Shown in pieces: positions 1 through 20,000 of a stretch of 20,000 nt of DNA. The notes beneath the pieces are model-generated. The model did not search any database. It was not told where the DNA came from and was given only the letters and a program-made list of their open reading frames with translations. The DNA lies in the IMG/VR virus record IMGVR_UViG_3300035445_000118. One strand, written 5' to 3'. Made by a program: the position numbers and the translations under genes. This DNA comes from an uncultured virus (IMG/VR IMGVR_UViG_3300035445_000118). Lineage: Duplodnaviria; Heunggongvirae; Uroviricota; Caudoviricetes. The stretch's first letter is position 1. Each line of letters begins with the position of its first letter.

Positions 1-702
1 CCACGAGGCGTCGTATTCCTCTTTGACCTCAAACTTATCCAGCCGGGTGGTCACCGTGACTTTGATGGTCTCGCGGTAATCGGTGGGATTCCACTCTTTG
101 TCGACCAGTTGGGGGGAAATCACCGACAGGGTAGCATCGGGATTGACCGCCACGAACTGGTCGCCCAGCGACATCGAATCGTCCGTCAATTTCAGCAGCA
201 GTTCGCGGTAATCCTTCAGGAAGCGTTCCAATTCCTTGTTGGTGTACCGCTTGTTGCGTTCATCGCCCTGAGCGTTTTCGGAGAGCGTCGCGGCCACGCC
301 GCCGCGCCAGATGTAGCTGGCAATGGTCGAGGTGAGTCGTTTGCGGAATAAGCCCCCGAACCGAAAGCCTTCGGCTTTGCCCCGGCGCAGGCGATCCCAG
401 AACTGGTAATCGATCTGGGTGGCGTCCACCGCCTTGGCGATGCGCAGCTTCCACAGCGGCAGCACGGAGACCTCCCGCCCAATCATCTCCGAGGCAGTGG
501 CGGCATACCCGCGCAGCTCGCGCATGTCGGTCGCAATGGTCGTCAGGGCGTAGGGGCGCTCCGAATCGGCACTGATGATGCCCTGCGCCAGCATCTCCTT
601 ATGCACGTCCGAGGGGCTGGCAAACCCCTTGTGCATACACGCCAGCACAAAACGCTTGCGCTGCTCGCGCGTAATCGGGGTGTACACCGTGGGTTTGCCC
701 AT
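1..702 (-). CDS. Probable phage portal protein, N-terminal 234 codons (runs off the window edge; absent from the ORF track)
   Basis: Manual translation from ATG at 702 (1 nt after the upstream stop) stays open to position 1: MGKPTVYTPITREQRKRFVLACMHKG...LTSTIASYIWRGGV...SMSLGDQFVAVNPDATLSVISPQLV.... The position downstream of terL and the SYxWxGG and LGDxFV...DxxLxVISP pattern resemble SPP1-type portals (inference). Confidence 0.6.
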   Translation of the reverse strand, partial: MGKPTVYTPITREQRKRFVLACMHKGFASPSDVHKEMLAQGIISADSERPYALTTIATDMRELRGYAATASEMIGREVSVLPLWKLRIAKAVDATQIDYQFWDRLRRGKAEGFRFGGLFRKRLTSTIASYIWRGGVAATLSENAQGDERNKRYTNKELERFLKDYRELLLKLTDDSMSLGDQFVAVNPDATLSVISPQLVDKEWNPTDYRETIKVTVTTRLDKFEVKEEYDASW

Positions 703-703
703 C

Positions 704-1249
704 TCAGGCCACGTACAGTCCAAACTCGAACTTCAGATCGGTCGTCTGCGTGTAGGTCGGCGTCCCGGTATTGATCACCGGCAGGATGAACAGCCACTCC
801 ATCGACTCGAAGTTGATCAGGGTAGAGCCGGACAGACTCAACCCCGCCAGCGCCAGGGAGGTGCCCGTCGGCGTGCGATAATCCGCCGCTGCAACGGCGA
901 TTTTATCGGGCAGGGCCAGGGCGTCCAGGTCGGCAATGACGGGCGTCCAGGCGGCGTTATCTACGCCCAGGGTGGTCGGGATGCGGTCGAACACCCAGAA
1001 GTCAATAGCGATTTTGAGATTGCGGGCGTCGGTGATCTTCACCCCGCCGATAAAGCCCATGCCTTTGGCACTTTGCACATTGAGCGCCAGCAGGCCCATC
1101 AACACATCGTTGGCCGCATAGATGCTGGTGCTGTTGGCAGGAGCGGTCGAGGTGACGGCGAAGGTGGTCAGACTGGTGACGCGCTGCACGGGGTAGACCG
1201 GGGAGCTGTTGTAATAATGCCGAAACTGCCACATCAAGGGGTCCATCAT
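704..1249 (-). CDS. Hypothetical beta-rich protein between terL and portal, possibly virion-associated
   Basis: 181-aa ORF with a TAATG stop/start overlap with terL; Thr/Ala/Ser-rich with alternating hydrophobic pattern. Confidence 0.7.
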   Translation of the reverse strand: MMDPLMWQFRHYYNSSPVYPVQRVTSLTTFAVTSTAPANSTSIYAANDVLMGLLALNVQSAKGMGFIGGVKITDARNLKIAIDFWVFDRIPTTLGVDNAAWTPVIADLDALALPDKIAVAAADYRTPTGTSLALAGLSLSGSTLINFESMEWLFILPVINTGTPTYTQTTDLKFEFGLYVA

Positions 1250-2673
1250 TACTCCTGGGGGGTTTCATGACCCCGGACTCTACGTGAACGCTGATCTTTA
1301 GTATACCTCAAGTGTTGGCTGGCATACAATCCCTGGACGGGGATACGCCGCACGCTGGTGCGGGACATGCGGCTCAGATAGGTCAACCCATGCACCAGGG
1401 CATCCAGCCGGTCGGGGGATTTCTGCCCGGACAGCGGTTCCCACAGCGCCATCTGCTCTTCCAAATAGGGAAATAGGCCGACATGGTGCACCAGCCCCCG
1501 CTGGTAGAGGGCGACGACCGGTTCGGCGCGCAAGGCTTTCCCGCGATGGGCCGTGATCACCAGGATGGGCAGGTCCCTCCCCCCGCGCACCGTGCGCAGG
1601 GTATGCTCGACCATCTCCCCGCCAAAGTTCTTTTCCGCAATCACCAGGTTGGCCGATTTGCGCGCAAAAGAGGTCACGACCTGTAAGGCCCAGTCGCCCG
1701 GTTTGCCTGCCAGGCTATCGTCGGCCACGACATAAAAATGCCCATGTGCCGCCGCCGAGATGACAATCCCGCATTCGGCCACACTGCCAGGGGGATCGAC
1801 TGCCACCACGATGTAGTCCAGATCGGGGGCGAAGTCCACGCGCGTGGCCTCGATCAGCGCATGGGTCCACAGGGCACCGGGGGCTTCGTCCACGTCGAGG
1901 GCTTCGATTTCCTGCTGGTAGGCCAGGGCGGTCATATCCTGGGCGACTTCCTCCACCGCACCGGGGGGCAGGTAAGGATTCTCCTTCGACGAGAAGTGAA
2001 AGACCTCCCACAGTCCACTGCCGTCCTGCTGGGCCTTTTTGAACAGCTTGGCGGCATGGCGAGGGTCGCGCGCTTTGGACCGGGCCGTGGAATGCAAACT
2101 GGGGGGCGTATAGATGAACAGGGCCCGCCCGCGCGTATCCATCAGCATGGGGGCACCGACCTCGGCCCAGATCGCTTCATCCATCAACTGGTACTCGTCG
2201 AAGATGATCAGATCGGCGGTGTCACCGCGCAGGTGGTCGGGGGACCACCCCGTCATGGCCCGGATGCGAAACAGGGTGCCAGGACGTTCGATGATGTGTT
2301 TGGTTTCGTTGAGGTAATACAACCCCGCCTCAATCGGCTCGCGCAGCGCTTGTTTGACTTCATACCAGAAGCGATCCACCTGATTCGAGGTCGGAGAAAC
2401 ATACAGGACCCGCCCCCCCTCCTTGATCTGCGTCATCGATCCGTCGGGAGCGAACTGGAAGCCCAGAAACTCGGCCACCGCCTCCATCGCGCTGGTGACG
2501 GTTTTGCCGCCCCGCCGTCCAGCGCGCATGATCTTGCGAAGGGCCCGTGAGGCCAGGCACGCCATCTGATGGATATGGGGACGCGGATCGGGCAGATGGA
2601 TTTGCAGGTCAATGACCTGACCGGCGGAGGCCGGGGCCGTGGTGGTCGTTTTGGGCGTCGCGCGACGGGGCAT
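1249..2673 (-). CDS. terL: Terminase large subunit
   Basis: Walker A AGRRGGKT, Walker B LIIFDE, coupling-motif region YTPP, and C-terminal RNase H-like nuclease motifs VVAVDP and SPDRLDALV; GAGG RBS upstream. Confidence 0.95.
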   Translation of the reverse strand: MPRRATPKTTTTAPASAGQVIDLQIHLPDPRPHIHQMACLASRALRKIMRAGRRGGKTVTSAMEAVAEFLGFQFAPDGSMTQIKEGGRVLYVSPTSNQVDRFWYEVKQALREPIEAGLYYLNETKHIIERPGTLFRIRAMTGWSPDHLRGDTADLIIFDEYQLMDEAIWAEVGAPMLMDTRGRALFIYTPPSLHSTARSKARDPRHAAKLFKKAQQDGSGLWEVFHFSSKENPYLPPGAVEEVAQDMTALAYQQEIEALDVDEAPGALWTHALIEATRVDFAPDLDYIVVAVDPPGSVAECGIVISAAAHGHFYVVADDSLAGKPGDWALQVVTSFARKSANLVIAEKNFGGEMVEHTLRTVRGGRDLPILVITAHRGKALRAEPVVALYQRGLVHHVGLFPYLEEQMALWEPLSGQKSPDRLDALVHGLTYLSRMSRTSVRRIPVQGLYASQHLRYTKDQRSRRVRGHETPQE

Positions 2674-2723
2674 ACAATGTCCTCAATTCCTTGAGGACAT
2701 CGTAACACAGCGTATAGATAACG

Positions 2724-3563
2724 TCAATCTTTTCGGAAGATCAGTACGTCCTCTACATTCACAATGGGCAAACCATGCTCCCGACGTCGGCGCTGCCATA
2801 ACGAGGGATTGTCGATCAACCGCGCATGGCGTGCCACCAACTCTAGCCCCATGTTTTGGACTTCGACGACGGTTTGTCCTACCACATCCACCAGCTTCCC
2901 GCGCCGGTAGTGGTTTTTGAGAACAACGATCATCAGTCCCCCGGCGGGCACCAGATCCGCCAGATGGCCATAGATGGTTCGCATGTCCGTCCAGTAATTC
3001 CGCCCTGATTTGTTTCCGGTGTTGGCGCGCCCGCCAGCATAGCGGAAGCCAGCGGCAAATGAAGCATGGTTCGGCTGCTGGATGTACCGATCCCATCGTG
3101 GACCGTGCTGTTTCTCTCTCATAATGCGCGCTCGGCGCTCATTGGAGATTCCATTTCCCGTTTCAAATCCGTAGGGCGGGCTGAACAGGATATGATCGAA
3201 CGGCGGGCAGACAAGTGTCTTCGCGTCGGCCTGGTCAATGTCGATCAGCCCCGCGAACAGTCCGCCGACCTGGTGGATTAGCGGTACGCTGACCTGCATG
3301 AGTGCAACATAATCTGGGATGATGTCGCGCAGGATGACATGGCGCTGTTGTGTGGCCGCGAGCATCAACGATCCCGTCCCGGCCATTGGATCAAGCAGCG
3401 TCTCACCGGGTGCAGTATAGAGGTCGATCAGGCGTTGGAGCAGTCCTAGATGGAGTTTGGCGGGGTGCGAAAATACCTCCTCAGCAAACAACCGTCGTCG
3501 AATAGGCGTATCCACTGGAAAGGTCCAGGGAATTATCTCGACCCCATCCAAGACCGCACTCAT
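2724..3563 (-). CDS. Orphan amino (probably N4-cytosine) DNA methyltransferase
   Basis: HPAK, SAM-binding motif I LLDPMAGTGS, catalytic motif IV FSPPY. Start re-assigned to ATG 3563 (MSAVLDG...), which forms an ATGA overlap with the upstream stop at 3560-3562. Confidence 0.85.
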   Translation of the reverse strand: MSAVLDGVEIIPWTFPVDTPIRRRLFAEEVFSHPAKLHLGLLQRLIDLYTAPGETLLDPMAGTGSLMLAATQQRHVILRDIIPDYVALMQVSVPLIHQVGGLFAGLIDIDQADAKTLVCPPFDHILFSPPYGFETGNGISNERRARIMREKQHGPRWDRYIQQPNHASFAAGFRYAGGRANTGNKSGRNYWTDMRTIYGHLADLVPAGGLMIVVLKNHYRRGKLVDVVGQTVVEVQNMGLELVARHARLIDNPSLWQRRRREHGLPIVNVEDVLIFRKD

Positions 3564-4815: not shown

Positions 4816-5114
4816 GTTTCGCTCCCCGCTTTCTGCCGCACCGCCTGCGCCTTGTCCAACATCGCCTCCATCTGATCGTCAGTCGGCAAATAAGAGACAG
4901 TCATCCGTGCATAGGGGGATAGGGCAGATAGGATCGTTTTCTGCAACGGGTCCTGAGATGCAGCATTCCGTACTTGAAGAAACAACAACGTCAGTTCACG
5001 GTCGGTTTTGTCTCGAACCTCTTCCTCCAGTTCTTCTCGCCAGGCCAGCAGATCGTCCAGGCGATCCTGGAATGTCAGGCGCTTTGATTTGCGTTTGATA
5101 CGTCGATTGAACAT
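4812..5114 (-). CDS. Hypothetical helical protein (MFNRRIKRK...)
   Basis: ATG 5114 is preceded by GAGGAGAGAA (5128-5119); first gene of the coupled operon. Confidence 0.75.
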   Translation of the reverse strand: MFNRRIKRKSKRLTFQDRLDDLLAWREELEEEVRDKTDRELTLLFLQVRNAASQDPLQKTILSALSPYARMTVSYLPTDDQMEAMLDKAQAVRQKAGSET

Positions 5115-5220
5115 CCGATTCTCTCCTCTCATATCATCGGGGATACCGGGATCGCGCCGCTTTCGGCGGTGGGTGGGGGGAAGAAAGCCTCCAGCAGTTT
5201 GAGCGCGACCCCTGTGGAGT

Positions 5221-5249
5221 AGTATATACGATCTGGTGGTGGTTGGCAA
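5221..5249 (-). promoter_or_regulatory. Sigma70-type promoter for the small-ORF/methyltransferase/terL operon
   Basis: TTGCCA (5249-5244), 17-bp spacer, TATACT (5226-5221). Confidence 0.7.
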
Positions 5250-5499
5250 GGGGGAGGTCAGAAGTCAGCGTAAGAACTTCTTCCAGGGCGGGTGTTTATT
5301 CACCCTACCAACCACTCAGTCCTGCGCTGAACCGGTGCTGGGGGACTGGCGGACATGCCCGCTCTTTGTCGCGCCCTGTATGTGCAGTATAGCCGTGATT
5401 GGTCCAGTTGTATAGGGTTGGGATGAGAACTCGCCGGAAGATCACCGAAAACCAAGGTTTATTAAGATGGCTTCGCGTAACGTGCGGACGCCTTTATGG

Positions 5500-5533
5500 T
5501 TGGCGAGGCAAAACGCGCGATTTGGCGAGGCAA
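5500..5533. repeat. Direct repeat TTGGCGAGGCAA x2 with 22-bp period
   Basis: Exact 12-mer at 5500-5511 and 5522-5533 in the non-coding gap below terS. Confidence 0.7.
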
Positions 5534-5799
5534 GTGTTGGGGCGTGAAGTGAGATGAGGTGGCGGATTAATGCAACGGGGTATATATTGCTGAGATAGCC
5601 ACCCACCCCCTCCCCGCCGTAGGCCACCGGCTAACAGATCACCGGTGCCGGTCTCACCGCGAAGCTGCGCGCGCTGGCCAGCACAGCCGCACGAGCGACG
5701 CAAACCGCCGTCACTGCTACATAAGAAATGGTTGTAACATAATAAAAACTATGTCACACCTCACACGGGGAGAAACGACCTNGACGCTGGGCGCATTAG

Positions 5800-5826
5800 A
5801 ACAAAACAGCCCATAGAAGGGCTGTT
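5800..5826 (-). terminator. Intrinsic terminator downstream of terS
   Basis: AACAGCCC-TTCTAT-GGGCTGTT followed by TTGTT on the minus strand. Confidence 0.6.
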
Positions 5827-5857
5827 GTCTATACACATNNGCTTAGTTGTATAGCAA

Positions 5858-9284: not shown

Positions 9285-10430
9285 ATGGGCACCCTGTATC
9301 GTATCACCTCCAGCGGCATGAAAGCGGTTGAACCGGTCCGCTTTGAACCGGGCAAAGTCTATTACTACGGCGCGCATATTCCCGCCAGTGTGATCTATGT
9401 CACCCGCACCGACGACGACACGATCTACTATTTGAAACTGATCGATCACCTGTACGGCAGTGAGCCGACGCACGAATGGAAAGAATCCAGCGCGCACCTG
9501 TCTTTGAGCGTTAACAGCGGCGTTGAAATTATGACTCGCCAGCTCGCCGAGCTGGGCGATCACCCGATGAATCTGTTTCACCGCGCCAGTATCACCCGTA
9601 TTCTGGCCGGGGACCCTGCCGGGTTTGACCTCCCGACGGATTACCAAACGTTTGACGCCTGGAGTATCCAATGCCTGAAGGAACAGAACGAACGCGCCGC
9701 CGAACGCGCTCAAATGAAACACTATACCCTGATCGAGACGGCGAATTTTATTCGCGCCGTCCTGAAAAAAGAATTTCCCGGTCAGAAATTCAGCGTTCGG
9801 TCGGATCGCTTCAGTATGGGCAGCTCGATTGATGTCAAGTGGATCGATGGACCGACCCAAACCGAAGTCAACGATCTTATCAAACGTTTTGCCAGTAAGG
9901 GAGTCACCGATAATACCGATTATACGCCCGATGTGGACGGGATCGGCCCCGATGGCCAGCCCTGCACTTATGGCGCCTCGTATGTGAATGGATCACGGAC
10001 CTACAGCGCCGATTTTTTACAGCGCGTAGCCGCCCTGGAATGTCCGAAATGGGGCAAAACGGCGGCGGATCTGAATCTGGTAAACTGCGAGGACAGCGAA
10101 CCTTATTTCGCCCATGAGCCCGCCGTCATCGTAGACCCCCACGGCCACCCGTTCGGGCGCACCTTGCGGGATCGCGTGATGACCGCCGTTTACGAGACGA
10201 GTGATTATCACCGCCCAGAACCCGTAACCATCGAATCTAAACCGGTGAGCGTCGACTCTCAACCCATGATCACCAGCGACCGCCCGACCAGCCGAGTCGG
10301 CGAGTACAAAGGTCACCCGACGATTACCCTCATCGACGGCGATAAGGAATTTTCGTTCGGGCTGGCCAAAGCCCGTCAAATTCTCGCGAACTTGACCGCC
10401 ATTCAAGCGTTTGTCGAGTCGCAGTCCTGA
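9285..10430 (+). CDS. Multidomain protein with an LPD29-like domain (large polyvalent protein-associated domain)
   Basis: ETANFIRAVLKKEFPGQKFSVRSDRFSMGSSIDVKWIDGPT matches the LPD29 pattern as I recall it. A separate C-terminal module EYKGHPTITL...FSFGLAKARQIL follows a Pro-rich linker. Confidence 0.75.
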   Translation: MGTLYRITSSGMKAVEPVRFEPGKVYYYGAHIPASVIYVTRTDDDTIYYLKLIDHLYGSEPTHEWKESSAHLSLSVNSGVEIMTRQLAELGDHPMNLFHRASITRILAGDPAGFDLPTDYQTFDAWSIQCLKEQNERAAERAQMKHYTLIETANFIRAVLKKEFPGQKFSVRSDRFSMGSSIDVKWIDGPTQTEVNDLIKRFASKGVTDNTDYTPDVDGIGPDGQPCTYGASYVNGSRTYSADFLQRVAALECPKWGKTAADLNLVNCEDSEPYFAHEPAVIVDPHGHPFGRTLRDRVMTAVYETSDYHRPEPVTIESKPVSVDSQPMITSDRPTSRVGEYKGHPTITLIDGDKEFSFGLAKARQILANLTAIQAFVESQS

Positions 10431-10432
10431 CC

Positions 10433-10495
10433 GTTCAACCGGTGCGCACGAGTCCGCGAGCTCCCCCGTTCGCGGATTCCCGGCAAGGGTTGAAT
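10433..10495 (+). other. Long imperfect intergenic hairpin 3
   Basis: TTCAACC/GGTTGAA outer arms; inner 12-bp stem GAGTCCGCGAGC/GTTCGCGGATTC with two G-U pairs. Confidence 0.7.
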
Positions 10496-10531
10496 TGTGG
10501 AACCATCCACATTTTAGAGGAGTGTAACGCT

Positions 10532-15989: not shown

Positions 15990-16010
15990 CCGACCATGAG
16001 TTAGAGGAGA

Positions 16011-16661
16011 ATGAGCATGACAGACTTACATGAAAGAGCTCGATTGGCTTATGAAATGAAACTGGAAGAAGCGCGCGTCAAGCAGCGCCAAAGCGATGAG
16101 GACATTGCGAGTCGGCGTCAAGAACGGATCGACAAGAGCACACCGCGCCTGGAGGAAACCATCCAGTACGTGTTTGGCGCGGTCGATGTTCAGACGCATT
16201 GGGATGATCAAGAATATCCTCTCTGCTATATCATCTTGACCGAGTTTCCAGGGGTCAAGTTCTACTACCGCGATGCGTCCTCCCTTTCGAATCGTCACTT
16301 TTTGGCTCGCAAAACCTTAGCCGTTCCTGAAAACCCTGAATATGAAGACTGGTGGAATTACTCCCCGAATTTCAACATCAAATCGGATTTCGAACAGCGC
16401 ATCTCTACCCTAGCCGATCTGGGAGAAATGATACACGCCCTGACAGCATTTGATGCTCAGGTGGTCACTCCCCGACCGCCCGTCGTCGACCCTCTCACGC
16501 CGCGTAAGAACACGACAGAAACACCCTATGCGTTTCTGTGTCTGAGCCAATTGAATCAGGACACGCGGTCGTTGGTTATCCTCAATAGTGGCCTAGACGA
16601 TGAGGGCGATCCCTGGATTTTCGTCCAATACCTCGGCGATTCTGCCAGTGTACCATTCTGA
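16011..16661 (+). CDS. Hypothetical protein with N-terminal coiled coil
   Basis: 216-aa ORF; the AGAGGAG RBS may favour the second ATG at 16017. Confidence 0.8.
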   Translation: MSMTDLHERARLAYEMKLEEARVKQRQSDEDIASRRQERIDKSTPRLEETIQYVFGAVDVQTHWDDQEYPLCYIILTEFPGVKFYYRDASSLSNRHFLARKTLAVPENPEYEDWWNYSPNFNIKSDFEQRISTLADLGEMIHALTAFDAQVVTPRPPVVDPLTPRKNTTETPYAFLCLSQLNQDTRSLVILNSGLDDEGDPWIFVQYLGDSASVPF

Positions 16662-16672
16662 CATCTCCCCAC

Positions 16673-16703
16673 AAAAGAGACCGCCCGGTGAGAAGCCGGG
16701 CGG
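16673..16703 (-). terminator. Intrinsic terminator for the convergent minus-strand genes
   Basis: CCGCCCGG/CCGGGCGG stem (16681-16703) followed on the minus strand by TCTCTTTT. Confidence 0.6.
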
Positions 16704-16722
16704 CAAGAGGAGAGAAATCGAT

Positions 16723-16747
16723 GACCCCCGATGAGGGGGTCTTTCCT
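16723..16747 (+). terminator. Probable terminator ending the plus-strand block
   Basis: GACCCCC-GATGA-GGGGGTC followed by TTTCCT. Confidence 0.5.
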
Positions 16748-16754
16748 GACCAGT

Positions 16755-17306
16755 CTACCCGATTTCGCGTTCAATGTAAAGCGCGACCCGCCCTTGCGCA
16801 TCGGACTCCACCGCCGACCAGTCGCCGACCACTTCCAGCACCAGCGTGCGCCCCTCGATACGCACCACCCGCCCCTGGCCCTCGACCTTGAGCGGCTTCA
16901 GCGGCTCGCCTACCGCCGCACTCAGGGCGTCGCGCAGGGCGTCCACCGGCCAATCGTGGTCCGCCGCCTGCTCCAGCCAGTCCAACGCCGACTCCAAATC
17001 CTGCACGCGCATGGCGACCCGGTAATGCGACCACCGCAGCAGCGGGAACATCGTGCGCGTATCGGGCGGATAAAAGGCCGCAACGCGCCGGAAGTCGCGC
17101 AGCGTGCTGGTATTGTAACGAATGTCGGTGGCATACTGGCCCAGGCTATCCTCGCCGTAGCGCTTGGCGACCCGTCCCGCCAGATCGCCCAGCTCCCAGG
17201 AACGACCATCTTTGACCTGCACGGCGTCCAGCCCCGCCGCCACCAGGGTTTCCCAACTATCGTCGATCAGGTCCAGCACGTCCACCACGGGCTGTGTCAT
17301 CGTCAT
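16755..17306 (-). CDS. LmbU-like / DUF1016-N-like DNA-binding protein
   Basis: WELGDL...RYG...TLRDFRRVAAFYP...R...LRWSHY...WLEQAADHDW...LR pattern; ATGA-coupled to rusA. Confidence 0.6.
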   Translation of the reverse strand: MTMTQPVVDVLDLIDDSWETLVAAGLDAVQVKDGRSWELGDLAGRVAKRYGEDSLGQYATDIRYNTSTLRDFRRVAAFYPPDTRTMFPLLRWSHYRVAMRVQDLESALDWLEQAADHDWPVDALRDALSAAVGEPLKPLKVEGQGRVVRIEGRTLVLEVVGDWSAVESDAQGRVALYIEREIG

Positions 17307-17659
17307 TCGAGGGTCCTCACTTCAATGTCTACCCCAGGATTCTGGTGTCCATACTGGACTTCGGCATGGAGCTGCACGATCTGGCTGTCATCTTCGTAGA
17401 CCACGCCATTCATGCCATCCAGACAACTCTTTTGCAGGTTGTCGCAGTCCGCGCGGCGCGACCCATGCCGCCGGAAGACCATCGTCACCGCCACGTCGCG
17501 GGCCAGGGCGTACCGCCCTTGCATGGCGATCCACGCTTCAGCCTGGACTAAGGCTTCCCACGCTTTCGTCTTCTGAGGGGTATACGCATGACCGTTCGCG
17601 ATACGCGGACGCTGCTTGGGCAGGGGTTGGCCGTCAACGGTGAAGGTAATGGTGGTCAT
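17303..17659 (-). CDS. rusA: RusA-family Holliday junction resolvase
   Basis: PLPKQRPR...YTP N-terminus; catalytic RADCDNLQKSCLDGMNGVVYEDDSQIV. Confidence 0.92.
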   Translation of the reverse strand: MTTITFTVDGQPLPKQRPRIANGHAYTPQKTKAWEALVQAEAWIAMQGRYALARDVAVTMVFRRHGSRRADCDNLQKSCLDGMNGVVYEDDSQIVQLHAEVQYGHQNPGVDIEVRTLE

Positions 17660-17752
17660 GAGCAGGCCCCTGATAGGCGCAGGGGCGACGCCACGGGATT
17701 CAAATAGCGGGTCTCGAAGGTGTCCCTATTATACCGCTGATGTGAGAATTGG

Positions 17753-17804
17753 AAAAGCAAAACCCGCCACATGTGAGCGTGTCCACGACAGAGGCTTGGC
17801 GGGT
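17753..17804 (-). terminator. Possible intrinsic terminator
   Basis: ACCCGCCA/TGGCGGGT arms (17762-17769 and 17797-17804) with a long loop, followed on the minus strand by TTTGCTTTT. Confidence 0.45.
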
Positions 17805-17830
17805 CTACTGCCTAAAGTATACCGTGCTTC

Positions 17831-18157
17831 CTACAGATGGACAATGACATAGCCCATCACGTAGGCCATGATGGGTGTGGAGAGCAACTTGAATACCTGG
17901 ATAAAGAAGTTTTCCCAGGTGGCGCGCTTGTCCTCTGGATTCACCGGCATATCTTGATGGGTAAGATAACTGCCTACCAAGGCGACGCCGATAGCGGTGC
18001 GTAAGCTCAGGATGGGCGCATTGAATGGGTCCACGATAAACCACCCCCACAGGGCTTGTAGAACCTATCCTTTCAGCAAGATAGCGATAACTGATACCAT
18101 GGCGGTGATGATTAAGATCAAGAAACATCCACTGGGGGTAGTTACTTTATGCTCCAT
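17831..18157 (-). pseudogene. Membrane protein gene interrupted by one in-frame TAG (18067-18065)
   Basis: GAGGAGAGAAA RBS and ATG 18157: MEHKVTTPSGCFLILIITAMVSVIAILLKG*VLQALWGWFIVDPFNAPILSLRTAIGVALVGSYLT.... This is in frame with the track ORF 17831-18034. Confidence 0.7.
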
Positions 18158-18215
18158 GATTTTCTCTCCTCTGGATTAATCCAATGGTCGTCGTTCATCC
18201 AATCCTATAGGGGGG

Positions 18216-18500
18216 TTAGCGAGCCATAACCTTCACATCGGGATCATCATACGGTCGCTCCTGCGTTTCAACGCGGACGGTCGACATGGCGGTGCGAAAC
18301 TGATCCAATTCGGCATTCAAGGTCTCCGCATCCACAAAACAGAGATAATGCTCCAGAATCGTCATGCACACACTGGACATCATCTGGCTGAGCGGCACCT
18401 CGTTCGACTTCCCGAAATTGAAACTGCCCCCACGGTAACCCGGCTGACCTTTGGGCATCTCCTTGAGGGTGAAGGTCGCAGAAATCGACAGTCTAGGCAT
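18216..18500 (-). CDS. Hypothetical protein
   Basis: 94-aa ORF with AGAGGA RBS and protein-like composition. Confidence 0.7.
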   Translation of the reverse strand: MPRLSISATFTLKEMPKGQPGYRGGSFNFGKSNEVPLSQMMSSVCMTILEHYLCFVDAETLNAELDQFRTAMSTVRVETQERPYDDPDVKVMAR

Positions 18501-18619
18501 AGTATGATTCCTCTAAAGCAGCCCACGTCGGTAACGGGGGCGGGTCCATCGGACGATCACTGACTTTCAAGTCGTGGCCATAGTAGATTTTGACACAGGG
18601 ACAGGCGTAACCATCCCAA

Positions 18620-19640
18620 ACGATGACCGCCCACTTATGTCCCCAGCGGGGATGAGGCGGTGTGTGCAGCCGTTTCCATATCCGTGCATGAGGCCCGACC
18701 GCCGCTGTGTGGGCACGGCGGAACAACACGGGACAACCAGGATATAACTCATCGGTATCGATGGGGGTCTCTCCTCAATCAAAACCATCATGGACCCCGC
18801 TACTGCGAGACGGCACGCAGTCCTTGCAGCCTCAACCGGGGTCTTAATCATCTTGTCGTGTTGAGGAAACGAGTCCGCCGTCAATGACGTGCCCTACGCG
18901 CGGTCCGTAGTGCCTGCTCTCGTCAGGCTGACGGGCATCCGTTAATGTACAATCGCGCGAACTATGCCGGACCCACGCGAAGGGGGATACACCTCAAGTA
19001 ATCCTGATTTACCGTCCAGGCTGTATCCCATGCCCAGACCTGCCCTTGTTAGCTCTAAATCAGCGCGTCTTCTGCTGATGCGGTTCCCGCGTCTAACGGC
19101 GGGCGATACCCTGCGAACGGGCCAACTAGGGGGCGAGCAGTGTCCCCCACGATGCTCCGACCAAGCAGTTTGTCATGCCCCCGCTTTAAGCTGCGACCGC
19201 CTCAANTCANGTGNCGNATGANANTCGGCGGAAAACTCGCGNCCAGGTGATGCTGATGAAAACCTCGATGCTGGTCATAGGCTGCACCCTTGCNGGCGCG
19301 GGGGCCNTGGCCTTGTCCGCTCNCCAGCNTTCGAANGCTGGCATTTCCCNTTGTTANGGGCGACTTGNCCTTAGTCGACGCGGATACTTCTCTCCTCACC
19401 ACCCCCGGCGAGCTTTGCACTCGCTACAGGTTGACCATTCCTCGCCTGACGCCTTTCACCTCGAACATCGGAAGAGGAGTTCGTCATGCCTGACCGCAAG
19501 GCTACGGATCAAGGTGGGCTACTCAGGACCGGACATGCCAAGAGACCGCTTTCACGCACCCTGTTCATGACACAGGACCGCTTTAAGTGGTTCTGGGCCT
19601 CACCGGCGTCGGGGGCGGTGAGGAGAGAAGCAGGTTGTTA
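18620..19640. ncRNA. Candidate large structured non-coding RNA (boundaries approximate, strand unresolved, minus favoured by the promoter)
   Basis: No credible ORF; more than 15 hairpins or multibranch stems, a 24-bp long-range helix and a tRNA-like cloverleaf; downstream of the minus-strand promoter at 19844-19816. Confidence 0.55.
19315..19384 (-). tRNA. Degenerate tRNA-like cloverleaf (apparent AAC triplet in the anticodon position)
   Basis: TCCGC..GCGGA acceptor-like stem, D-arm GACT-AAGGNCA-AGTC, short arm CCCN-TAACAA-NGGG, variable AAAT, T-arm-like CCAGC-NTTCGAAN-GCTGG. Stem lengths are non-canonical and six bases are N. Confidence 0.35.
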
Positions 19641-19815
19641 AAGTGCGCGACGTTCCACATTTTCATCGATCTATTGATCGGGCTGGCCTCTGGGCCACTT
19701 GGCGCGGAATTTAGCTACCCTTCCCACTGGCTCGTTGAGCAAACTGCCGGGGTACTCTCGCTCGGTGGCGCTCATTCCAGGACCCGCTTCCGCTTCCGTC
19801 CACCCGATCACCATC

Positions 19816-19844
19816 ATCTTAGCACCCCTTTCAAAAGTTGTCAA
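19816..19844 (-). promoter_or_regulatory. Leftward sigma70-type promoter with extended -10
   Basis: TTGACA (19844-19839), 17-bp spacer ending TGC, TAAGAT (19821-19816). Confidence 0.7.
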
Positions 19845-19853
19845 TACCGTATG

Positions 19854-19881
19854 TTGACTTGCGGGGAATTGGTGCTATACT
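19854..19881 (+). promoter_or_regulatory. Rightward sigma70-type promoter with extended -10
   Basis: TTGACT (19854-19859), 16-bp spacer ending TGC, TATACT (19876-19881). Confidence 0.65.
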
Positions 19882-19906
19882 GGTAGACAGAAAAGGAGAA
19901 CNANCT

Positions 19907-20000
19907 ATGTCTGGAACCCGCACNAAATATATCCATGTGGCCCTCGATGACAGCCACGACATGATCCGGGTGGATGAACCCGAACACCGCGCGGCCCACC
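19907..20000 (+). CDS. Partial CDS (MSGTRTKYIHVALDDSHDMIR...), possibly a small DNA-binding regulator
   Basis: AAGGAG RBS and ATG 19907; open to the window edge. Confidence 0.55.
   Translation, partial: MSGTRXKYIHVALDDSHDMIRVDEPEHRAAH

Follow-up and report, generated by a model that had tools for sequence, protein, structure and literature searches.

A probable long noncoding RNA outside the catalogued families, encoded in 1.4 kilobases of gene-free DNA from a wetland phage known only from metagenomes

What does a tailed phage do with 1.4 kilobases of DNA that carry no genes? Can such a stretch encode a long RNA, and if so, of what kind? We addressed these questions in a window of 20,000 nucleotides from an uncultured wetland phage (the whole stretch of DNA that was analyzed, to which all coordinates refer). 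The window has genes of a tailed phage, among them a terminase, a methylase, RusA, DUF4942, LPD29, a small terminase and a sliding-clamp-like gene. Our results indicate that the most likely product of its gene-free stretch is a long noncoding RNA (ncRNA) outside the catalogued families. The terminase relative with a name (53% identity) comes from an Aggregatilineaceae genome; this single relative gives only a hint that the phage host may belong there.

Gene content and coding potential of the gap

A first inspection of the letters alone (here called the sequence-only reading) had described an ORF-poor kilobase at 18620-19640. The gap turned out to be bigger than that, spanning 18501-19906 (1,406 bp), and it is the longest interval without genes in the window. 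Could the small open reading frames (ORFs) inside it be coding? The codon model gave the 11 internal ORFs scores of -0.22 to +0.01, compared to -0.23 ± 0.18 for shadow frames and +0.005 to +0.39 for 19 genes (the control ORF 18060-18158 was left out of the codon comparisons, and ORF 16722 was also left out of the small-gene comparison). The top two internal ORFs overlap the lowest-scoring real genes, and the remaining ones resemble shadow frames. In a look-up against a protein collection, one of seven internal ORFs was present (on two short contigs) versus three of three flanking genes; a second internal ORF was called as a gene on one 1,229-bp contig and had no other relative. Because length changes (+1, about -17, and -1) in a public wetland metagenome run, X1, break every frame, none can span 18946-19163. 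The N positions fall into the three codon phases with counts of 7, 5, and 3, showing no codon period. The stretch is not AT-rich (57% GC). The locus is noncoding, a conclusion resting on one genome and one run.

We weighed a coding alternative, a plus-strand operon in the right third of the region, in which orphan peptides of 51 aa (19486-19641) and 83 aa (starting with TTG at 19635) lead into the gene at 19907 and a 24-bp helix hides the second ribosome-binding site (RBS). The plus arm of that helix is an RBS of the type used in this phage lineage, 9 nt ahead of the TTG, and gene calls on short contigs (none longer than 1,229 bp) include both ORFs. However, their codon scores (-0.23 and -0.10) lie under the range of -0.03 to +0.37 spanned by the 12 small genes that were framed correctly, three candidate relatives included no homologue other than the sequence itself, no plus-strand promoter was found between 17872 and 19854, and the operon would leave a tRNA-like cloverleaf on the minus strand unexplained. 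We therefore consider this operon very unlikely.

Promoter, predicted folding and tRNA-like cloverleaf

From which strand, then, would an RNA be made, and how far would it extend? The following features frame the gap.

19816..19844, minus strand: sigma70-type promoter with an extended -10 (TTGACA-17-TAAGAT, 10/12 consensus)
19854..19881, plus strand: divergent promoter for the gene beginning near 19907, back to back with the leftward one
18525..19809, minus strand: proposed full ncRNA or long leader of about 1,285 nt, within the gene-free gap
18216..18500, minus strand: gene for a 94-aa protein, directly downstream (45 relatives, 28-54% identity)
17762..17803, minus strand: abiF-like hairpin with a U run behind it (Rfam abiF, 34.6 bits with a cut-off of 37, E 0.0054)

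The promoter that had been proposed at 19844 is present, including the extended TG, and would start transcription near 19809. Promoter-like sites numbered 7 in 17600-20000 versus 1.3 in shuffles, and the sequence at 19907-19999 had a codon score of +0.35. The minus strand had been favored earlier, with G-U pairs counted for the plus strand. Three observations uphold that preference: the promoter, the order of the cloverleaf arms, and the richness of the minus strand of the gap in G and A. In the stem at 18702-18721, one G-U pair on the plus strand is an A-C opposition on the minus strand.

A minus-strand RNA is likely to be longer than the stretch first noted, extending from about 19809 to 18525. 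Its MFE fold pairs the two ends (19798-19780 with 18547-18529, just ahead of the RBS of the 94-aa gene); we rejected this pairing as a real closure of the RNA, as it did not exceed the controls (10/60). No terminator was found between the ncRNA region and the downstream genes. One possible transcript end is the abiF-like hairpin at 17803-17762, ahead of which no other hairpin has a U run. No AbiF-type gene was seen adjoining this hairpin, and X1 and X2 contain diverged copies of it on contigs of low depth. The 94-aa protein, whose family measures 80-100 aa, was modeled as two strands and two helices (pLDDT 91); it obtained no Pfam or PHROG name, and fold searches yielded no match of use (at best E 0.45 and Z 3.8). 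The protein is a possible partner of the RNA.

The absence of a terminator ahead of the RBS of the 94-aa gene also fits a different arrangement, in which the transcript is a long cis leader of a small leftward operon, made up of the 94-aa gene plus a pair of short ORFs of membrane type, or is processed into a chain of short RNAs. Patchy structure and segments swapped as modules between alleles agree with this arrangement, but leaders of 1.3 kb would be exceptionally long, and the stretch matched neither riboswitch nor T-box families. We rate the leader or chain as fairly unlikely.

Is the region as highly structured as the sequence-only reading had claimed? The five stems it listed (18702-18721, 18802-18821, 18830-18866, 18984-19029, and 19059-19079) and its 24-bp helix are all present. 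The claim of high structure did not hold: the fold of 18620-19200 had z-scores of -0.59 (plus) and -0.68 (minus) relative to shuffles. Folding no better than shuffles had been named in advance as evidence against the RNA, and most of the stretch behaves in this way. Among 18 sub-region folds, the sole outlier was the following element.

18750..18890, minus strand: long imperfect hairpin (z -2.98 on both strands), with a copy of the RBS motif at 18776

For comparison, 1 of 132 background folding windows reached -2.9, and a flanking coding window got -2.97. Perfect stems of at least 5 bp numbered 32 versus 24.4 ± 5.2, a count reached in 8 and 9 of 100 shuffles. The dense stems are mostly at chance level, and similar stems are common at 57% GC. 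Since many genuine structured RNAs show modest z-scores, these results weaken the argument from stems and do not refute the RNA itself.

The second half of the region contains an element of another kind.

19316..19384, minus strand: tRNA-like cloverleaf, recognized in the sequence and by descriptor search

The cloverleaf reported at 19315-19384 was confirmed on the minus strand only, reading from 19384 to 19316. Its acceptor and D stem have 5 bp each, the D loop reading AAGGNCA; these are joined by a middle stem with a loop of 4-6 nt where the anticodon loop would sit, and a 7-bp T stem with the loop UUCGAA; CCA is absent. Our descriptor, which was composed after the element had been seen and allows N to pair, matched once on the minus strand, with no match on the plus strand, none in the remaining 37 kb of strands, and 1 in 2,000 shuffles. 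ARAGORN (down to -ps60, where the Ns may hinder it) and Rfam did not call the cloverleaf. The sole ARAGORN call in the window, at the relaxed setting of -ps90, was a poor tRNA-like shape at 18592-18687 (minus strand) that is probably noise.

Is the cloverleaf a tRNA? It has the D-loop GG and the T-loop UUCRA in cloverleaf order. By this test it is not a genuine tRNA, as the element is without a 7-bp acceptor, a 7-nt anticodon loop, and a 5-bp T stem. With the anticodon loop and CCA gone, the mimic is unable to decode, and the elbow is retained. A stack of twelve acceptor/T pairs would be a suitable substrate for RNase P and RNase Z.

Variation between alleles and the 24-bp helix

We then asked how the region varies in its natural population. 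In X1, 84% of sampled words of 18200-19200 were present. As this run and the source sample of the window may be connected, we used it for variation only. Elsewhere the phage is clonal: the locus L009 shows no difference at any of 7,690 non-N positions (7,690 of 7,690 match), and over 16000-18888 the sequence of the main X1 contigs is that of the window. To the right of this interval, small differences appeared (substitutions at 18889, 18939, and 19159; +1 after 18946; -1 at 19163), together with two larger features.

18989..19100, either strand: variable segment with two X1 alleles (depths of 19.5 and 56.8)
19206..19368, either strand: cluster of 15 single Ns, out of 21 N bases in the window

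The second allele of 18989-19100 (depth 56.8) is about 17 nt shorter. There are no N bases in 19369-19901 and three in 19902-19924. The Ns probably represent conflicts between alleles. A related sequence of 16678-16857 was also present in X1 (15 differences in 180 nt, depth 6.5), which suggests a further relative in the community.

Do these changes preserve pairing? Ns face each other across local stems at 19357/19350, 19336/19329, 19307/19294, and 19222/19206. With hairpin spans of at most 20, a limit picked after inspection of the pattern, and Watson-Crick flanks of at least 3, these 4 pairs were matched in 54 of 10,000 random placements (221 of 10,000 with flanks of at least 4). Allowing G-U, the minus strand gave 6 pairs (5 of 10,000) versus 1,344 of 10,000 for the plus strand. 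Over all spans the opposition was not significant (1,677 and 4,320 of 10,000), and a laxer version of the test gave 680 to 3,555 of 4,000. The facing Ns are suggestive of compensatory change in hairpins. We saw no compensatory pair among the five small X1 differences; they lie in loops or weak helices, and two of them break pairs in weak predicted helices.

Clustered variation of this kind could also follow recombination, and the related sequence at depth 6.5 comes from the same run. Could the region then be a DNA element or decayed sequence, such as an origin, a recombination hot spot, an invertible segment or a MITE, with stems that arose by chance? The fact that the folding signal is mostly one inverted repeat fits this possibility. 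However, iteron-like repeats were not above chance and AT richness is lacking, X1 contig 8 apparently spans the repeat-bounded segment unbroken (judged by size), and a strand-specific cloverleaf would be unexplained. We consider a DNA element quite unlikely. As for internal repeats in general, we discarded them after the k-mer excess was reached in 9-15 of 200 shuffles. A DGR variable region was likewise rejected: there is no gene here, many adenines are fixed on both strands, and a codon period is missing.

The inverted repeat itself lies immediately beside the cloverleaf.

19387..19630, minus strand: domain closed by a 24-bp helix, identified by z-score and inverted repeat; it contains no N
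19548..19589, minus strand: internal loop in which T-loop-like pentamers (UUAAA and UGAAA) lie on opposite strands

No other inverted repeat in the window is as long as this 24-bp one (the runner-up has 18 bp). The fold of 19380-19640 had z-scores of -4.7/-5.4, and its interior without the helix had +0.21 on the minus strand and -1.68 on the plus strand, a slight advantage that speaks for the plus-strand operon discussed above. Because the minus-strand value changes from -5.4 with the helix to +0.21 without it, the folding signal of the domain is due wholly to the helix. The double T-loop-like pattern was found in 187 of 1,000 shuffles in a loose form and in 1 of 1,000 in a strict form set post hoc; reading the double loop as a tRNA-elbow platform is speculative.

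What could the helix do? On the minus strand, its 5' arm is the complement of an extended ribosome-binding motif and its 3' arm is the motif. An extended RBS, GAGGAGAG(AA), precedes many gene starts of this phage lineage (the window, L008, and L075). The motif GAGGAGAG followed by ATG occurs at 9 sites in 18.5 kb of the window, 3 in 18.2 kb of the sister locus L008 and 2 in the sister locus L075, whereas 64 further terminase-related loci, 759,456 nt in total, have 3 such sites. AGGAGG-ATG accounts for 0 of 22 AGGAG-ATG sites in the window versus 95 of 341 elsewhere. This RBS variant and the avoidance of AGGAGG ahead of ATG may indicate that the anti-Shine-Dalgarno sequence of the host is itself a variant. 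GAGGAGA has 15 copies in the window, of which 11 are ahead of ATG and three lie in the region of interest (one in each helix arm, on opposite strands, and one at 18776). Neither the copy at 18776 (minus strand) nor the RBS-like 3' arm has a start codon behind it.

As the arms carry the motif and its complement, the 5' arm on a minus-strand transcript would be an exact anti-RBS. The helix would then cage the exact complement of an RBS motif typical of the lineage, a new arrangement suggesting translational control in trans. In such a regulator of translational timing, the 5' arm, freed by opening of the helix or by cutting of the RNA, would pair with phage mRNAs that carry the motif. Predicted pairing with the nine motif-bearing starts is -16.8 to -21.9 kcal/mol, compared to -8.5 ± 4.2 for random 28-mers, and is strong because these genes were chosen for carrying the motif. 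The enrichment of GAGGAGAG-ATG in the lineage and the three GAGGAGA copies in the region are consistent with this regulator. On the other hand, the arm is locked within a helix more stable than any other in the region. The motif may merely reflect the host anti-Shine-Dalgarno sequence or duplicated expression cassettes, and both arms could derive from former gene starts. The helix arms may be a regulatory strand, such a relic, or a plus-strand switch for the 83-aa ORF. An anti-RBS regulator is compatible with the explanation that we prefer but is a stronger claim, and we regard it as unlikely.

Our preferred explanation is a large minus-strand ncRNA of no known class. In this respect the sequence-only reading remains the best one, without the dense stems on which it had leaned; its support now lies in the gene-free gap, the way the variation is distributed, and the presence of a tRNA mimic. 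Some functional minus-strand RNA is probably made at this locus, and we see about an even chance that it is a single GOLLD-like long ncRNA running leftward from the 19844 promoter. The phage would transcribe a continuous RNA of up to about 1.28 kb from this promoter. Both alleles would share the same ends, and a fast-changing middle (18889-19368) would hold the pseudo-tRNA. The mimic, which retains the D-loop GG, the T-loop UUCGA, and a 5+7-bp acceptor/T stack, would most likely serve as a shape handle. One potential use of the handle is that tRNA-processing nucleases of the host cut the RNA into a 5' piece of about 420 nt and a 3' piece of about 790 nt; another is a docking or decoy surface for host factors that bind tRNA.

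A bolder proposal is that the locus represents a new class of kilobase phage RNA in which a tRNA mimic is coupled to a caged anti-RBS strand and modules are exchanged between alleles. We think this unlikely to be correct. If true, the coupled RNA would switch off or re-route translation of the class of phage genes that bear a private extended RBS.

Relatives and comparison with known RNA systems

Does the RNA have relatives? In IMG/VR, a T-arm pattern found 7 loci (all chance), a pattern of D arm plus T loop found 8 (chance), a right-flank pattern found 0, and a double-loop pattern found 73, nearly all coding. Protein-anchored scans gave none in viral contigs, one weak match without upstream DNA in metagenomes, and one false match in genomes. 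There was no blastn match in INPHARED or PLSDB, and comparison of 50 of 66 terminase-related records gave one 17-nt chance match. No ncRNA homologue was found in 201 genomes of Spirochaetota, an arbitrary phylum, with the 94-aa family. None of these searches thus yielded a homologue of the ncRNA. The listed holders of the locus sequence included no RNA datasets, and the literature that we searched, with subscription journals and bioRxiv supplements outside it, contained no paper on such an RNA or on a phage anti-RBS RNA.

In a sister phage, the terminase is 66% identical and two adjoining proteins are 85-92% identical; the fragment compared ends at about window position 16875, about 1.6 kb short of the gap. 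Two other places in the window are similar in this phage. Part of a second gene-free gap (5100-5857, 758 bp, with three Ns), which adjoins the small terminase gene, is 79% conserved and is a possible packaging or control region. The strongest background fold (10361-10500, plus strand, z -4.65) crosses the junction after the LPD29 gene, where similar short DNA is kept.

A separate candidate ncRNA was noted in a 146-kb IMG/VR phage (L146:1252-1735, plus strand). This unannotated structured stretch of about 480 nt lies amid 10 tRNA calls and has a z-score of -6.0 (partly from a terminator-like hairpin), no Rfam match below E 5, and no INPHARED match. Homology between it and our locus was rejected as chance level (chain, 747 of 5,000; alignment, 1,250 of 2,000).

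The earlier statement that the RNA fits no known class agrees with our Rfam search, in which 18480-19900 and both its halves matched no family; the best matches (E 6.2-9.9) were far below the cut-offs. Several specific assignments were rejected. RNase P RNA had no CR-I to CR-V match in Rfam. A model from 18 RNase P segments, examined for homology to P11-P12, gave 17 matches at E ≤10, none of them at 19548-19589. A tmRNA was rejected for the lack of a CCA-bearing domain and tag frame, permuted calls being confined to settings at which a window yields 149 calls. Our own descriptors for HDV-like (theta) and hammerhead ribozymes, used without a positive control, gave 0 matches in the region. An unrelated phage locus (L134:1397-1448, minus strand) has a Twister-P1-like match of 44.6 bits (E 5.6e-7), below the cut-off. 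As a separate matter, a retron would have a reverse transcriptase gene beside its repeat-closed RNA; none was present among the 25 frames scanned, and the gene at 19907 runs off the window.

How does the candidate compare with known systems? The tRNA-like domain of tmRNA, bacterial Y RNA, and mascRNA retain the elbow loops and have lost decoding. Viral tRNA mimics do likewise, according to an excerpt of PMC4810234. Unlike these mimics, the cloverleaf described here is internal and unpermuted, with a 5-bp acceptor, a 7-bp T stem, and no CCA, and no tag frame, Ro60 gene, or reverse transcriptase gene was seen in the window. The same excerpt (PMC4810234) describes the interdigitated double T-loop as a tRNA-elbow platform. 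Such loops occur in RNase P, the T-box, and the L1 stalk. P11-P12 of RNase P resembles our locus in having two T-loop-like pentamers that flank a variable helix, but no further RNase P or T-box core is present here. ROOL, OLE, and raiA are also large structured RNAs of bacteria or phages whose function is open; they differ in that only short loop words are common by eye and in that the candidate is about twice as long or more.

The closest likeness is to GOLLD, an RNA with an ornate structure backed by covariation that assembles into nanocages. Excerpts from three sources describe a GOLLD RNA with a conserved 3' part, a variable 5' part, and tRNAs sometimes in the linker (PMC12286853), a tRNA-Phe within J13/15 (PMC12990946), and an internal pseudo-tRNA (PMC6582537). 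Our candidate would likewise be phage-borne and more than 800 nt long, with constant and variable parts and an embedded tRNA-like piece. Its cloverleaf (19384-19316) lies at the edge of the variable stretch, as a pseudo-tRNA in a variable linker would. The differences are a weak folding signal and a helix matching the phage RBS. GOLLD often adjoins tRNA arrays; the window, which covers 20 kb of a 68-kb contig, has 0 tRNA genes. The 416-position RF02032 model had no match at E 10 in 18480-19900 or either half, so the RNA is at most GOLLD-like in its working and not a member. The locus offers two handles on such RNAs, natural alleles in one population, from which covariation could be drawn using existing reads, and sequence-level prediction of RBS targets. 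To large phage RNAs such as GOLLD and ROOL, the locus would add an unrelated RNA with the same layout.
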